Part shown: positions 130 through 49,844 of the stretch, piece after piece | Numbering within the stretch: position 1 is the first letter of the stretch | Layout of the letters: each line of letters opens with the position of its first letter | Origin: Sedimentisphaerales bacterium | GTDB lineage: Bacteria; Planctomycetota; Phycisphaerae; Sedimentisphaerales; SM23-30 | Length of the DNA: 64,000 bases | Assembly (NCBI GenBank): GCA_963666285.1 | Contig: OY762711.1 | Reading direction: 5' to 3' (one strand) | Program-made: the position numbers and the translations under genes | The notes under the pieces: generated by a model | Database searches by the model: none | Seen by the model: the letters and a program-made list of their open reading frames with translations, nothing else | Told to the model about the DNA's origin: nothing

Positions 130-3663
<3,534 letters not shown>

Positions 3664-41284: not shown

Positions 41285-42621
41285 ACTGAACTTTTGCAAA
41301 ATTAGGGTAAAGCTAATTGTACTTTAATACGTTTAAAACTTGTTCCGTTGGATTCGATTTGATCAACCACCCAAGCGATTGTATTGCTGAGAGTTTCTCG
41401 CATAACTGCCATACAAGATTGTCCTATGGTCGTCAGGCGTTCTCGTGCCCATTCACACACACGGTTCTGCTGCATTTGAGTCAAAAGTACGCTATACGCC
41501 AGAAACACCATGTACATGTGTCTTGTCTGACCCAGGCCGCTTCTAAGCTGACAGTCGCCCATGCCCAAATACTGCTTGCCGTCTCGATGAAAGCACTCTG
41601 TGCCTTGCCAGCGGCAGCGATAGACCTTCAGGATACGAATCGCTTCCCAGTTGCATCGATTGCAAACCAGAATCTTTTTAGGTTCAATATCATTCTTTTT
41701 ATGCCAGATAATCAGGATACGTACTTTGTGGTCTACACCAGGAATCCTGATACTTTTAGTAAAGTAATATTGGCGATGCTTGCCAATAGTTATGAGTTTT
41801 TTGATTTCAGGGTCAATAGATTTGGCTACTTCTTCAGCCTTTATTACTTTGCCCTGAAATATAGTCTTACGATTTGTTTTCAAATCACCAACATAATTAC
41901 GTTCATACTGGTTTATATGGTTAAGGTTGTCGCTATGGGTAAACCAGCTATCGAAGGTAAAGTCACCGGGAATATCGTTAGCTACAGTCCAGTCAACCAG
42001 ATTGCGGAAAAGGATATTATGATCCTGAAATTCAATGCCCCGTTCCAGACAATCTTCTTTTTTGACAAATCTGTAAAACTCCAAAGGATAATGTTTCCCG
42101 GAATTACAGACATAATTGGCTATCAGGTAATCATGGGCTATTTTATTACGTTGATCTGCATGATCCCAGAAATATCCTACATCCTCAATATGTTTACCAC
42201 TATGGTCTATCAGAACATTATCAAGGGCAATAACCCCAGAATCGCTATATCTGGTTTTAGGGTCTTTCTGCAGCCACTCCAGTCTGGCAGTGTTAAGCGA
42301 TTCTTCGTCCCATTCAACATCGGTGAGAAACCGGTTGAGACAGGATTGATCAGAGGCAAATGCAAATTCCCTGTTGATGGCAGAGACGTTTTTCTTGCGG
42401 GCAATGATAAGACCGGTGATATACTCAGCAAAATGACGACGTTCAGGCTCATTTTGAAAATGATCGCCAAATTCATCGACAGCTTGCTGGACTACTGTAG
42501 GGTATTGTACTATAGCTGGCATACCAAAATCCTTTCTGGGTTTTCGGAGTGCTCTGCTATCAAATTTTATCGGTCTATACCACATTTTAACGTTAATTTT
42601 TTAATTTTGCAAAAGTTCAGT
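41285..42621 (-). mobile_element. IS701-like insertion sequence, 1337 bp
   Basis: Perfect 20 bp terminal inverted repeats actgaacttttgcaaaatta / taattttgcaaaagttcagt, flanked by direct repeat tcta (41281-41284, 42622-42625). Confidence 0.92.
41302..42522 (-). CDS. DDE transposase, IS701-like
   Basis: VIALDNVLIDHSGKHIEDVG, FTFDSWF and YRCRWQGTECFHRDGKQYLGMGDCQLR; start taken at MPAIVQYP. Confidence 0.88.
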   Translation of the reverse strand: MPAIVQYPTVVQQAVDEFGDHFQNEPERRHFAEYITGLIIARKKNVSAINREFAFASDQSCLNRFLTDVEWDEESLNTARLEWLQKDPKTRYSDSGVIALDNVLIDHSGKHIEDVGYFWDHADQRNKIAHDYLIANYVCNSGKHYPLEFYRFVKKEDCLERGIEFQDHNILFRNLVDWTVANDIPGDFTFDSWFTHSDNLNHINQYERNYVGDLKTNRKTIFQGKVIKAEEVAKSIDPEIKKLITIGKHRQYYFTKSIRIPGVDHKVRILIIWHKKNDIEPKKILVCNRCNWEAIRILKVYRCRWQGTECFHRDGKQYLGMGDCQLRSGLGQTRHMYMVFLAYSVLLTQMQQNRVCEWARERLTTIGQSCMAVMRETLSNTIAWVVDQIESNGTSFKRIKVQLALP

Positions 42622-44165
42622 TCTAACTCTTCTCATAATTCAGGTGCAGCAATTTTGGTATGAACTTTTCTTACGCGACAGCTTTAAAATAAGTTGTGAG
42701 CGACAGCGAATTATTCCTGATGTCAACGTACATCAGGACACCTCAATTCTTCACCCGCTTGCGACATGCGAAGCATACTTAACTTTTCGTTTTTCACTCA
42801 ATTATCTGGTCTGCCCACAATCCAAAAAAAACAACTTACGTCAATCTCCGTAAATTTCTCAACCCGTCGTTATCCTTACCGCACCCGTTATAACATCTCC
42901 GCACTCTTCAATTTCATTCCGTTTTTTTAACTCTTCCTTCACCTAAATACTCTCACTTATAAATCAATTAGCCTTGCCAAACCCGTTTAAAAAAGGTCGC
43001 GCAGCGACACCTTCACATCATTGGACAAGTCCAATGATGTGCCAGAGTGCGTAGCACGTATTTATCTTCCTCCTGTTCTACTGTTCTACTGCTCATCTGC
43101 TCTAAGCTCTAAGCTCTAACGACCTTCCGTCGCTCGGCGTAGTCGTATAAAACAAGCTGTCCGCGAAGCGGATACCATAATTTTTCACTTTTAATTATTC
43201 AGTTTTTATTGAGCGTTGTTTATATTAAAGACGAAGTTTTCGTCGTTGTTATGTTTTATCGAGAGCTGATTTTTGCTGGTTCTCATTTTTTGTCGGCTCT
43301 CTACAATTGGACGGTATGTCGAAAGTGCGCTGATTTTTTTAGTGGTCGTGTTGGTTTGGAAGATTGTAAGGTGTTTGTAGTAAGCGGGATAAAATTTTTT
43401 GGAATTATAGATTTTCGCGATTTGGTTGATGTAAAAACGCGGTGATTTTTTCTTTGAAAAAATCAAGTGAAGAATTGCGGTGTCGCTTCGCGACGGCTAA
43501 TTAATGGGTGACGGGAGGTGTGCGGCATATATACGGGGAAGCGCGGCGGGTGGACGGAGGTGAAAAGGCAAATGGATTTGAACGGCGGTGAATTGCGGTA
43601 AACGGACAGTATACGGCGGAGCGTTGAATGGGTGCGGCGGTATACAGACGGGAACGAAGCGGAGACGCGATGAGCTACGCTAAATGAAAAATGAATAATT
43701 AAAAGTGAAAAATTAAGGTGTTCGCCTGGCGGCTCACGGCTTGTTTAAAATTAGAACAGATGACAGTAGAACAGGCAATCAGCAGCGAGCTACGAGCGGC
43801 CAGCTGTCAGGAAATACGTGCTACGCACTCTGGCACATCATTGGACAAGTCCAATGATGTGAAGGTATCGCCTAGCGGCGGAGCTAATTTAACATGCTAA
43901 CGCATATGTGGGGTAGGTTAGCGATAATTGACTAGTGGGTCGGGGAGGAGGTGTGGCGGAGGAAGAAATTTACCGAGATTTGTCGTAATTTGTTATTTTT
44001 GGGTTTTGGGCGGACCAGATAATTGAGTGAAGAACGAAGAACTAAGAGTGAAGAATTGAGGTGTTCGCCTAACGGCTCACGGTTTGTTTTAAGGCTGTCG
44101 CGTAGGTAAAGTTCAATCAAAATTGCGGCACCTGAAGGATGAGAAGAGTTAGAAGAAAGAAGTGA
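42622..44165. repeat. ~1.5 kb nested imperfect inverted repeat with mini-hairpins and 7-mer repeats
   Basis: Reverse-complement matches: 42622-42860 with 43960-44165; 43009-43063 with 43812-43866; ~43072-43105 with ~43750-43775; 43147-43201 with 43692-43748. Confidence 0.85.
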
Positions 44166-44312
44166 GAGTTTTAAACCGGTTCGTTCAGGACATGGGTAAC
44201 GGTTGAGTGTCAATACATAGGTAAAATAGCTTATGTTTTTGAAATATTATTATCAAGACAATAGACATTACAGTATAATAGCAAACTTAGTGCCAAACAG
44301 GTTTGGGACGGC
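43975..44312 (+). repeat. Direct repeat A (~340 bp)
   Basis: Similar to 49482-49844; 44159-44246 is identical to 49691-49778. Confidence 0.9.
44279..44296 (-). promoter_or_regulatory. Sigma-54 (-24/-12) promoter motif in repeat A
   Basis: Minus strand TTGGCAC-TAAGT-TTGCTA matches TGGCAC-N5-TTGC. Confidence 0.6.
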
Positions 44313-44844
44313 CACTATAATTTCTCTGCCAGGAAGAAAAAAATATTATGAAAATGCCAAGAAAAATAAATAAACAATTTGAAAAAGTTCTTTTATTACT
44401 TTGTTGTGAAGAGGCTCAACTTTGTGTTCTATTTTTTTTGATAATAATAGACTCGATAGTTAGTTTATTTACTGTAACAAATTATAGGTATTTTATCATA
44501 ATCTTTCTATTTTATAGTATTTTTTGTTATTATATAAAAAAGAGTTATTTAAAAGATATATGTCTGTCTGAAAACCTTTTGTTTTTCTATAGTTTTATGC
44601 AAAAATTTTTATTTGTAACTCTTTGTTTGATATCAATTATTGGCATGTTTTTTACTATTTAACAAGATGGTATTTAAGGTGTCCGGCGTCTACCAGAAAA
44701 TAATTTAGATGAGGTGATATTATTCTACGCAAACCCTACTGATATGCAATAGTGTGTTTCATGTTCTAGTGAATCATAACCTTATAATATTTATACTATT
44801 GCAGGAGTTGTTGGTAGTTATTTGAATAAAGGAATTGTAGTAAA

Positions 44845-45981: not shown

Positions 45982-46329
45982 GAGACCAAAACCCGTTATT
46001 ATTATAATGGCCGGCAGCTGCTGCTTGAGGAAGTTAAGGATTCAGCGGATGTTGTATCAGGCCGAGAATATGTTTCCGGTAATGACTTGGATGATGCTTG
46101 TACAGAGGCAAAGGCATATGCGGCATCTAGTCAATGTTTATCTTACGTTGCGGAAAAATATCGTAGTTCGCGCCCTATAAATGCCCGTTTATCATCGGAG
46201 GAGCAGGGAGTATACGATGAATTAATGCGTGCTTCTATGGATGATTTTCAAGCCGCCGTTAACAATAAACAGAAATGTGAATTATATCAATTAAATCCTG
46301 ATTTGGTGGAGCCTTTAAAATCGAGGTAA
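45982..46329 (+). pseudogene. Orphan Rhs-core fragment fused to a toxin-like C-terminal tip
   Basis: In-frame TRYYYNGRQLLLEE..GREYVSGNDLDD then ACTEAKAYAASSQCL, which resembles ACSEAGAFDASYQCL near 48210. Confidence 0.7.
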
Positions 46330-46334
46330 ACATA

Positions 46335-47198
46335 ATGTCATATTTTAAATTGCTAATAACAATATTGTTTTGTATTGAAGTATTTTTTTTAGAGGGGTGT
46401 AGTGTATCCAATTTTTACAGTAAAGCTGAATTTGAAATTGTATTAGCTAAATATCATAGTTTAATTGACAATGAAATTAGTGTAAGTAAAATTAGTGGAA
46501 ATTGGGATAGCGACTTTATTATATTAAATAATAAAAAAAATGTGGATTCACCTTCAACGAGAGGGATTTTCAGCATAGAAATTATTCCTGATATAGATGT
46601 TTTTTGCAATGGGTGTAAAAATGCTTGTGTTAATAATATTAAACTATGTATATGGGAAAATGGAGATGTATTCTGGAGTAACCGAACAAATACATTTTAC
46701 ACTAATATTGGCAAAGAAGTAGTTAGTCTGTGGCATGAATGTTTAGATAAGAAAAAACTCTTTTCTGGTAAATTTTCATCAATACAGTATTATGGGGATA
46801 AAATCAACAATAACTTTCTTCACTTTTATAGAATTTCCATACGTAATAGTAATGAATTTGTATCTATTGGTTTGGTTTGTGAATGGTGGAATGATACATT
46901 TTTTACCGGCAATATGAAGACTCATAAAACTGAATTTGTTTACGATAATGATATAAAATGGAATAATATTATATCATTTTTGAATTCCATTAATTTGAAT
47001 GAGCAAGATGTTTATGTTTTAGATAATGATAAAGATTTTTGGATAAAAAATGTTGCATTTTATAATTTATTGCCATATCCAATGTTTTGGATAAATCCAA
47101 AATTAAATAGTGGATATTGTAAATGGAATGAGGCTGTTGAGCGAAAATGGCTTGATAATCAATTGAGTTTTGAGCTAAGCAGGCAATTTCCGCAATAG
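46335..47198 (+). CDS. Putative lipoprotein, probable immunity protein (paralog of 48506-49390)
   Basis: Lipobox-like LEGC; shares CIWENGDVFW, R(I/V)SIR..F(V/I)S and NLLPYP with the paralog. Confidence 0.7.
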   Translation: MSYFKLLITILFCIEVFFLEGCSVSNFYSKAEFEIVLAKYHSLIDNEISVSKISGNWDSDFIILNNKKNVDSPSTRGIFSIEIIPDIDVFCNGCKNACVNNIKLCIWENGDVFWSNRTNTFYTNIGKEVVSLWHECLDKKKLFSGKFSSIQYYGDKINNNFLHFYRISIRNSNEFVSIGLVCEWWNDTFFTGNMKTHKTEFVYDNDIKWNNIISFLNSINLNEQDVYVLDNDKDFWIKNVAFYNLLPYPMFWINPKLNSGYCKWNEAVERKWLDNQLSFELSRQFPQ

Positions 47199-47254
47199 GC
47201 AAATAAGTATCCGACTGTAAATAATTGCATTTTAATTGATTTAGATCCAGAAAT

Positions 47255-48405
47255 TTGGTTAAAAATAATGTTTACGATAACTTTCTGGATGAGGTTCTGT
47301 TACATAGGGCTACTGACGGAACTGAAGTCAGGTATTACCTGCACGATCATTTGAACAGTCCGGCAGCGTTAGCTGAATGTACAGAAGAGCATGAACAACA
47401 CCATGTAAGTGATGAAGGAAGATATATGAGAGCGCCAAGCGAAGCTAATGTAGTCAAGCCGGCCAATCCGGCATGGGTAAGGGCTAGCCACCCGCCCATT
47501 ACAGCACCGGGCGTGCAGAGAGGTAACGAACTGTACGAAGCCCCGGGAAAGGAGTTTGTCAGCCACAACGCAAGTGAAGGTGTTGAGCCCCGAAATTATT
47601 CCTTATCGCATCCGGGCCAGGGTTTTCATATGCCTGAAGCCAATATCGATATATGCGAAATACGGCGAGCATCTATCGACGAGCCGGGGTCTGAGTCCGT
47701 AGCGGGCAAACGAACTGACTGCATTGGAACTTGGGAGAACCGAAGTGCTCCGAAAGGAAGCGGCCAAGGAGCTGAAACCGTGACGCGGCCGTATGGCATT
47801 TTGGTAGTCGGACTGACTCATAGTAGAGGAGTAAACAGGGTAATGCCTGTTGAGTTTCGAAGTTTGAGGCACTCGAAGGGGTCAGCATTAATGTGTAAAG
47901 GCGAAACAGGATATTGGCCAGGCACTGAACTGGAAGAAACCATGAACGTTCCACAGCGTCTTCTATCGGAGACTTCTACAAGGCACATTACTTTGCCTTA
48001 TGTAGCCGTCAAAGTGAGCATTAATGAAGAGCCGGATGAGGGAAATCTTCAAGTCCGGTTCAGTGAGGGGCATGCGTTTCCTTGCACAAAATATAATGAA
48101 ACTCAGAATTTGTTAAATTAATGAAAGGAGGCGACATGCCTACTCGACACTGTTTAGGCCAAGACCCGAACCCAAGAAAAGGAAATAATAGGGAAAGAGC
48201 GTATTCAGACGCATGTTCTGAGGCAGGAGCATTCGATGCGAGTTATCAATGCCTCATGAAAAATGCTGTACTTGCAAGAGAGCTAGGAATTAGCGATGAG
48301 GTAATAGAACGTTTGGAAGCTCAAGCAAATCTAGATTCTAAACAAAGTAGTAGGCAAGCAACAAGATGTAGGCAGATGGGAGAAAGATATGGTTATAACT
48401 GGTGA
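47255..48405 (+). pseudogene. Orphan Rhs-core fragment plus HExxH toxin-like tip, split by a group II intron (exons 47255-47429 and 48149-48405)
   Basis: YDNFLDEVL..RYYLHDHLNSPAAL (Rhs core) then HEQHH; the exons join in frame to give 143 aa (..EGRYM-N-CLGQDPNP..). Confidence 0.72.
47430..48148 (+). ncRNA. ORF-less group II intron, IIB-like, 719 nt
   Basis: Domain V gAGCcggatgagggaaatcttcaagtccggttc (48029-48061); domain VI with bulged A48142 and 3' end ctcgAC; DI basal pairings ccaag/cttgg and aatgtagtca/tgactgcatt; EBS1 tcatat (47626-47631) pairs with exon end atatga; no reverse transcriptase ORF in DIV. Confidence 0.9.
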
Positions 48406-48505
48406 GAATTGTACTTGATTTTTCTACTCATGTTTTTGGATATGGAAATATGAAAACTTGAACATTAAACATAAGTACGGCAAGCTAAGGAATTAATAAT
48501 AAATT

Positions 48506-49390
48506 ATGAAATATATCATTGTGGCTACATTTAGTATTATTTTATTATCTGGTTGCAACAAGCCAGAAACAATGCAATTGTTATCAGAGTATCAGAGTGC
48601 CTTTTCTCCAGATTATTGTTCAGCAATTAAGTTAGACTTGACATATTTTGATAACCAATCGCTAATTCAAATGGCTTCAGAGTCAAAAATACCAAATATT
48701 AAATATTATGATTTTTTTGCGTTGGAAATATTGGACAAACATAACTCAAAATCCCCAAATAAAATACCTAATTTAGACAAGTTACTCTTACCAGACACGA
48801 GGGTACCTTCTAATTTAGACAAGTTGCTCTTACCTGACACAAGGGCGATTATCGAGATTGCAGTTAACTGTAGTAACCATTGTTACAATCATTGCAGTTG
48901 CAATGGTTCTGTCGGTTGGCCAAGAGTTTGCATATGGGAGAATGGGGATGTATTTTGGAATCTCAATCGTTATGTTTTTTATTTTAAATTAGAAAGAGAA
49001 ATAGTTAATAAATTTCACAAAATAATTCAATCATCGAATTTATTTGACAAATGCAATAAGGATTTATTTGTTTATTGCGATGAGAAATTTCCTGACTCAT
49101 TTTACAATAGAGTTTCAATAAGGTTGGATGATAAATTTATATCTTTGTGTTCCTTCTCTTCTTGGTGGAAAAACGGTTTCTTTTCTCCGAATCTCTATAA
49201 AGATTGTTATTACATAAGCAAGCCAGAAGTTGATATCTTATATGATTTGGGAGAAATTTTAGCTGACATAGATTTGTCAAAATATGAGGTTTATGTATTA
49301 TATTTAGATAATCAAAAAAGTTTTTGGTGGGATAAAATAGGTTCGCGAAACTTATTACCATACCCAACTATTACGTGTCTTACTCAATAA
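48506..49390 (+). CDS. Putative lipoprotein, probable immunity protein
   Basis: Lipobox LSGC; paralog of 46335-47198; contains a 42 bp tandem duplication. Confidence 0.72.
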   Translation: MKYIIVATFSIILLSGCNKPETMQLLSEYQSAFSPDYCSAIKLDLTYFDNQSLIQMASESKIPNIKYYDFFALEILDKHNSKSPNKIPNLDKLLLPDTRVPSNLDKLLLPDTRAIIEIAVNCSNHCYNHCSCNGSVGWPRVCIWENGDVFWNLNRYVFYFKLEREIVNKFHKIIQSSNLFDKCNKDLFVYCDEKFPDSFYNRVSIRLDDKFISLCSFSSWWKNGFFSPNLYKDCYYISKPEVDILYDLGEILADIDLSKYEVYVLYLDNQKSFWWDKIGSRNLLPYPTITCLTQ

Positions 49391-49481: not shown

Positions 49482-49844
49482 GAAATTTGGCGTAAGTTGT
49501 TATTTTTGGAGATTGGGCGGACCAGACAGGTGCCGCTATGCGACAAGTGAAGAGTGAAGAATGAAGAGTGATGAGTTGCGGTGTCCGCATTCGCGGACGA
49601 CTTATTTTAAAGCTGGCGCAGGAGTAAAGTTCAATCAAAATTGCGGCACCTGAACTCTGAGAAGAGTTAGAAGAAAGAAGCGAGAAGTGAGAAGTGAGAG
49701 TTTTAAACCGGTTCGTTCAGGACATGGGTAACGGTTGAGTGTCAATACATAGGTAAAATAGCTTATGTTTTTGAAATAATACTATCAAGACAAAAGACAT
49801 TGCAGTACAATAGCAAACTTAGTGCCAAACAGGTTTGGGATGGC
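49482..49844 (+). repeat. Direct repeat B (~360 bp)
   Basis: Similar to 43975-44312. Confidence 0.9.
49811..49828 (-). promoter_or_regulatory. Sigma-54 (-24/-12) promoter motif in repeat B
   Basis: Same TTGGCAC-TAAGT-TTGCTA as in repeat A. Confidence 0.6.

Follow-up and report, generated by a model that had tools for sequence, protein, structure and literature searches.

A stop-free reading frame through an ORF-less group II intron inserted at translation start sites

Group II introns near translation signals

Bacterial group II introns are generally considered to limit harm either by splicing or by a harmless choice of insertion site. In translational coupling, an upstream stop codon lies a few nucleotides from a buried SD and ATG, and the stem that sequesters the SD is melted. 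The intron described here likewise places a stop near a buried SD and ATG, but does so within domain VI of a mobile ribozyme. Insertion near translation signals is itself known from the specialised IIB1/CL1 clade of Michel et al. (2007), which, in the available portions of two later papers, is described as occupying sites in or beside initiation or termination codons, with a 300-700 nt insertion in subdomain Ia near the 5' end and a CL1 RT that has an endonuclease domain (PMC12584367, PMC4028801). The present intron also occupies start codons, with 8/8 copies behind ATG+A. Unlike that clade as those portions describe it, it has no 5' insertion (the D1D4 match starts 33 nt from the 5' end, and the alignment of homologs agrees), the RT of its kin (443 aa) is without an endonuclease match, its domains I-III span ~450 nt, and its family occupies many unrelated target genes in many phyla.

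For a reading frame that enters a ribozyme, the nearest precedent is the organellar exon-ORF fusions and the associated “core creep”, in which, so far as the available text describes them, the frame of the upstream exon continues into the ribozyme, as it does here (PMC3073962). Those fusions deliver a maturase, whereas the present frame has no recognisable protein product and lacks a synonymous excess, and its end lies at the SD and ATG that the intron supplies to the 3' exon. ORF-less bacterial introns served in trans, in the part of the source at hand, share with the present intron the missing RT ORF and the presence of RT-bearing relatives in the genome (PMC4424553); it differs from them by its stop-free frame, by its restart signal and by occupying start codons in eight near-identical copies. 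A literature search, mainly of journals outside subscription, returned no paper that describes a stop-free frame through a bacterial group II ribozyme or a relay of ribosomes across one.

The comparisons presented below suggest, with a probability of roughly 0.58, that selection has acted for ribosome passage across the intron and coupled reinitiation at its end, and that the copy studied here is a fused form of this arrangement. The lineage appears to add a third route of avoiding harm, that of being translatable while unspliced.

The intron, its copies and its target sites

The window, i.e. the whole 64,000-nt stretch of DNA analysed, contains a 719-nt group II intron without an RT ORF, the ends of which are fixed by eight genomic copies of 99.7-100% identity (Table 1). 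These copies differ from one another at 0-2 positions, and the three polymorphic sites all leave the frame open. In 8/8 copies the insertion point is directly after TATGA (ATG plus one base), and in six of the eight this is the beginning of an ORF of 153-515 aa; counted from the target ATG after splicing, the ORFs measure 86 (window), 379, 512, 271, 515, 333, 153 and 5 aa. The domain I-IV core is recognised by Rfam D1D4-6 (RF02005, 112.2 bits) at 47463-47699, and domains V and VI by RF00029 (52.3 bits) at 48027-48148. The 3' end is AC and the 5' end, GAGCG, is a variant of the GTGYG found in most homologs among the matches listed; the consensus ends of group II introns are given as 5' GUGYG and 3' AY in the available part of PMC4424553. 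The window intron is thus an ORF-less, non-autonomous bacterial group II intron that shares its genome with RT-bearing relatives, which probably move it in trans. By eye only, its domain IV remnant resembles the fused N- and C-terminal ends of an RT ORF; blastn against the RT-bearing kin found no match for it beyond flanking motifs.

Table 1. Features of the intron and its exons (positions in the window)
Feature	Position	Strand	Evidence or remark
5' exon frame, orphan Rhs-like remnant, start not clear	47240..47429	+	tblastn
Purine-rich SD-like stretch upstream of target ATG, IBS2 target	47414..47421	+	anti-SD duplex -5.7 kcal/mol
Target ATG + 1 nt, IBS1; intron inserted behind	47426..47429	+	8/8 copies after TATGA
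Stop-free frame from host ATG across ribozyme, 231-aa peptide	47426..48121	+	ends TAA 48119-48121
ORF-less group II intron	47430..48148	+	8 copies, Rfam domains
Position of relatives' putative relay (nt-87 stop, SD-like loop, nt-104 ATG)	47516..47535	+	stop and ATG absent here
EBS2, pyrimidine tract like 16S anti-SD, pairs with host SD	47596..47605	+	covariation
EBS1 loop, complementary to exon end TATGA	47623..47632	+	covariation
Domain IV remnant, approximate limits	47890..48025	+	read in open register
Domain V	48027..48060	+	Rfam RF00029, fold
Domain VI, long stem with bulged A	48064..48146	+	MFE -29.6 kcal/mol
ATG of TAATG overlap, in frame with 3' exon, SD absent	48121..48123	+	anti-SD +0.2
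Intron-borne SD 48124-48131 and ATG 48136, in frame with 3' exon	48124..48138	+	SD -11.6 kcal/mol
3' exon	48149..48405	+	86-aa ORF after splicing, 89 aa from ATG 48136

Pairing between the intron and its target is borne out by covariation over 85 introns among the matches listed. Duplex energies of EBS1 with the matched 5' exon averaged -3.74, as against -1.79 +/- 0.13 for shuffled partners, and those of EBS2 -4.02 as against -2.88 +/- 0.20. The duplex of EBS2 with the SD-like stretch of the window target reaches -6.4 kcal/mol, and the EBS2 of the window copy pairs with the SD region of all eight target sites at -4.2 to -6.8 kcal/mol. The sequences therefore support the view that this lineage targets translation start sites, EBS2 recognising the host SD and EBS1 the ATG plus one nucleotide.

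Since the intron sits after ATG+A in all copies, the relevant start is ATG 47426. TTG 47255, from which the first-pass annotation had ribosomes enter, is rejected as the host start owing to its lack of an SD (+0.4 kcal/mol for the anti-SD duplex); ATG 47426 has one. The 5' exon remnant is similar by tblastn to C1:3272175 (38 aa, 45% identity, E 8e-5), where an ORF matches the Rhs core TIGR03696, and a family profile search found no match for the remnant on its own or for the 3' exon ORF. That the window copy is inserted in an orphan remnant counts against selection for ribosome passage.

The 443-aa RT of the kin matches RVT_1 and, weakly, GIIM, with no nuclease family match in a family profile search, and its ORF stops just before domain V. 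The nearest named RT is that of the Caedibacter plasmid pKAP298 (64.7% identity), on which an apparently 5'-truncated member (L297; NC_005915.1, ~1545-3490) carries the same domain VI SD and ATG. RT-bearing relatives in genome G000 lie at C1:910721, 5397267, 4809801 and 5748538; two are full-length, one is a 3' fragment, next to which comes a transposase-like ORF, and one is a 5' fragment. The same genome holds a diverged ORF-less copy within intergenic repeat DNA (C1:1613560-1614207), with stops at nt 12 and 90 and a 71-nt deletion of most of the domain III region; this copy is probably dead.

Reading frames in the window copy and its homologs

The first-pass annotation had noted a frame open from 47255 to TAA 48119-48121, together with an ATG at 48121 that overlaps this stop and is in frame with the 3' exon, and both are borne out. 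Across intron nt 1-689 the three + frames hold 14, 20 and 0 stops. Because a frame of the same length, 231 aa from the host ATG, is found at all eight target ATGs, the open frame belongs to the intron as placed on its target ATG and not to the locus. The earlier judgement that chance composition is an improbable cause stands as well, as neither the host frame nor any + frame was open in 20,000 dinucleotide shuffles (0/20,000 each) and a composition-based estimate gave 6e-6; the shuffles ignore inheritance, and thus exclude an effect of composition only. The frame was rejected as a protein gene, given that the peptide has no Pfam match and the synonymous excess is absent; within the domain IV stretch, changes by codon position (25/18/28) give a weak codon signal.

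The frame terminates 3 nt upstream of an SD sequestered by base pairing within domain VI. In the predicted fold, the 5' strand of domain VI at 48074-48083 pairs with the SD, and SD and ATG are almost fully paired; the paired fraction of the SD is 0.94 in the window copy and 0.59-1.0 in 54 sequences of the family among the matches listed. An ATG 13 nt from the 3' end and in frame with the 3' exon is present in 50/56 of the listed introns that have a 3' end, comprising 42/42 start-codon insertions as compared with 8/14 others, with the reservation that kin are not independent. The TAATG overlap, proposed in the annotation as the coupling site, does not survive this comparison: ATG 48121 has no SD, and four close ORF-less relatives (L018, L222, L226, L276) end in TGA with no overlapping ATG. 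The restart codon is therefore likely to be ATG 48136, judged by its conservation and its SD.

Homologs were collected with motif scans that returned at least 115 stretches from genomes and at least 120 from metagenomes; the sample is neither complete nor random, the scan motifs having been taken from this intron family itself. Matches with <470 nt of intron or without the two internal motifs were excluded. Removal of eight identical 5' ends reduced 145 homologs to 137, and two more (div and L211m) in which the anchor motif is missing were removed to leave 135; loci L296-L319 stand outside all statistics. Members among the matches listed come from Planctomycetota, Cytophagia, Desulfobacteraceae, Spirochaetia, Fibrobacterota and others, and the insertion follows ATGA in 89 of the 137 non-identical 5' ribozymes listed. 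The viral contigs gave 1 match to the strict pattern, and an IMG/VR viral contig (L296) holds a full-length, RT-sized member after ATGA with the domain VI ATG. In two subclades the target shifts off the ATG, with exon ends such as AAGC/AACC and GAGA (L193, L202, L229, L230, L293; L026, L237, L245, L246, L249, L269, L273, L289), and those non-start members for which a 3' end is available are often without the domain VI ATG. At several loci (L066, L087, L091, L092, L100, L130, L139 and others) the first 100-200 nt of intron after ATG are followed by unrelated sequence, as truncated insertions or assembly chimeras would be, and at L084 two matches 78 nt apart share an identical 5' exon, either because the insertion junction is tandemly duplicated or through an artefact of assembly. 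For relatives, no splice joint was seen among the contigs of one RNA run (0.06 share).

Among the matches listed, the host frame itself is fully open in 1/137 homologs, its first stop falling at nt 87 in 52, at nt 12 in 29, at nt 102 in 11 and at nt 90 in 9. The open host frame is thus not conserved, which, taken to the letter, is the outcome that the annotation had named as refuting its reading. Both of the closest kin within this genome, with 88% and 85% identity across the 5'-most 420 nt, have a host-frame stop at nt 12; neither was seen at a gene start. A second frame is the one that recurs. Among the matches listed, an ATG at nt 104 is present in 75/135 homologs, and the frame beginning there is open past the conserved block at ~nt 390-420 in 50/75 of these, as compared with 2/17 that have GTG and 4/43 that have other codons. 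This nt-104 frame crosses domains I-III and, from ~nt 186 onward, has the same register as the window frame. In the window copy the early stop and the nt-104 ATG are both lost, and the host frame occupies that register.

Sequences with the nt-104 ATG belong mostly to one clade, and depletion of stops was therefore assessed on disjoint extant pairs, leaving out codon columns with >20% stops (0-13 per frame); such comparisons do not polarise the gain and loss of stops. In the clade and frame under consideration, both chosen after inspection of the data, 21 stop differences were observed and 46.8 expected (83 sequences, 41 pairs, median identity 0.89), with ratios of 0.77-1.46 in the other five frames. 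The subset inserted at starts and possessing the nt-104 ATG gave 5 as against 19.9 expected (47 sequences, 23 pairs; bootstrap interval 0.05-0.45), with five control frames at 0.85-1.29 and the rest of the clade at 0.68. Under a null for RNA constraint, in which the target bases are taken from the columns of other clades, the figures are 5 vs 16.7, a ratio of 0.30, with controls at 0.95-1.51. In 14/22 pairs the net indel length is divisible by 3, as compared with 2/9 and 4/13 in other clades, and the host-frame stop falls within -25..+5 nt of nt 104 in 47/55 introns, against 19/39 and 16/40. The depletion relative to other frames for which the annotation proposed to look is seen in the nt-104 frame, whose register the window frame shares from ~nt 186. 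No synonymous excess accompanies it in the nt-104 frame (294 vs 275; codon positions 254/286/312).

In two further clades, of 24 and 28 sequences, the tested frames are not depleted of stops, the lowest + strand O/E being 1.0 and 0.84, even though many of their members sit at start codons, and this counts against selection for ribosome passage. An SD-like loop at nt 88-96 was rejected as evidence of an internal start for being non-specific: it occurs about equally in sequences with the nt-104 ATG (65/75) and without it (56/60), and is thus structural.

Proposed ribosome passage and its alternatives

An unspliced mRNA would carry a 700-nt untranslated gap and would have lost its own start, and the remedy of the intron may be to keep ribosomes on the RNA. 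A ribosome initiating at the host ATG would cross the ribozyme in the stop-free frame, unwind domain VI, terminate just before the intron SD and reinitiate at ATG 48136, the product of the restart being the host protein with its N-terminus changed by four residues. Passage across the unspliced intron would also limit Rho polarity, the host genome encoding Rho. In many relatives this would take two steps, from the host ATG to the stop near nt 87 and then from the ATG at nt 104 onward, which the window family would have fused into a single frame; selection would fall on missing stops and not on the peptide. Ribosomes thus probably cross the intron and make the interrupted protein from unspliced RNA. 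The annotation had already proposed crossing, melting and reinitiation, and the SD buried in domain VI, the presence of Rho and the depletion in relatives all agree with that sequence of events, although the start and restart codons differ from those it named. Set against passage is the report, in the available text of PMC3073962, that ribosome entry into ribozyme cores impairs the splicing of group I introns.

The principal alternative is inheritance combined with chance, whereby conserved ribozyme motifs happen to place stops in two registers with the third almost free of them, the last two stops of the third were lost by drift, eightfold copying followed, and the domain VI start, if it works, is uncoupled. 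The fused host frame is a single event, and, since the nearest kin are only 2-3 stops away in that register, drift could have made it. The eight copies are likewise one recent burst with 0-2 differences, single pairs are open by chance at 11-30%, two clades are without the depletion signal, and the three frames have 0, 10 and 8 stop columns in the consensus. This account is nonetheless unlikely in view of the 3-4-fold depletion of new stops, which is confined to one frame and persists under the RNA-spectrum null, of the tendency of indels to preserve the frame, and of an ORF-less member with a different domain IV remnant (L096) that reached the same end point, its nt-104 frame ending at nt 737, at the domain VI SD.

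Still less likely is a coupling to the RT, in which the frame was selected to bring ribosomes to the start of the RT ORF, so that ORF-less forms merely inherited it and it serves mobility and not the host gene. Organellar group II ORFs are indeed translated as 5' exon fusions, according to the accessible part of PMC3073962, and in RT-bearing members the nt-104 frame terminates at nt 473-506, beside or just inside the RT start. Out-of-phase frames that enter the RT ORF stop soon in any case, so that this end point is weak evidence, and ORF-less members of ~80% identity keep the frame for 195-230 codons, as far as the domain VI SD (at nt 689 in L018, L222, L226 and L276). The least probable alternative, by which the frame provides ribosome cover only, shielding nascent RNA from Rho and RNases or tuning splicing while domain VI reinitiation is independent, can draw on the presence of Rho, on the protection of Ll.LtrB RNA from RNase E by ribosome association (in the available part of PMC3851717) and on the many members in which no frame leads to the buried SD and ATG, but it does not require what is seen in six ORF-less introns among the matches listed, where the stop is placed right at the buried SD, 27-30 nt short of the 3' end.

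Selection for passage and coupled reinitiation is therefore preferred, with differing reach across the family. Among the matches listed, the frame reaches the domain VI SD in 5/25 other ORF-less members, four of these being one clade, and in RT-bearing members 100-180 nt separate the RT stop from the domain VI ATG, both of which count against it. In these RT-bearing members a frame from an ATG in domain V to the domain VI SD is open in 21/29 vs 14.0 expected, and a control register gives 21 vs 13.5, the comparison concerning the domain VI interior only. It is accordingly a more tentative proposal, given slightly less than even odds, that the lineage as a whole is translationally transparent, with anti-SD mimicry finding the starts, a stop-free core relaying ribosomes, melting of domain VI switching between splicing and reinitiation, and the window family as the end point. 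Were ribosome passage to hold, the ribozyme core would be under a second constraint, that of no stops in one frame, without selection on a protein, and domain VI would serve in addition as a translation switch. It could account for the many intron copies at gene starts across many phyla, and raises the question of how the folding of a large ribozyme is reconciled with ribosomes crossing the same RNA.

Several observations concern the surroundings of the intron. Genome G000 contains a second Rho-like gene (C1:1463841-1464959; 439 bits, below the family cut-off). A DDE transposase (Pfam DDE_5) lies at 41302-42585 on the - strand of the window, and by eye a similar copy is located downstream of the intron fragment at C1:4809801. 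Window positions 45997-49390 hold a repeated module in which an orphan Rhs-tip-like ORF precedes a lipoprotein-like gene; the stretches 46335-47198 and 48506-49390 are 31% identical, and the two short ORFs have a 16-aa motif in common. The array looks like an orphan toxin-immunity array, for the second Rhs tip of which the start signal of the intron could, speculatively, supply a new start. It is flanked by two near-identical intergenic blocks of ~300 nt at 44000-44330 and 49500-49840.
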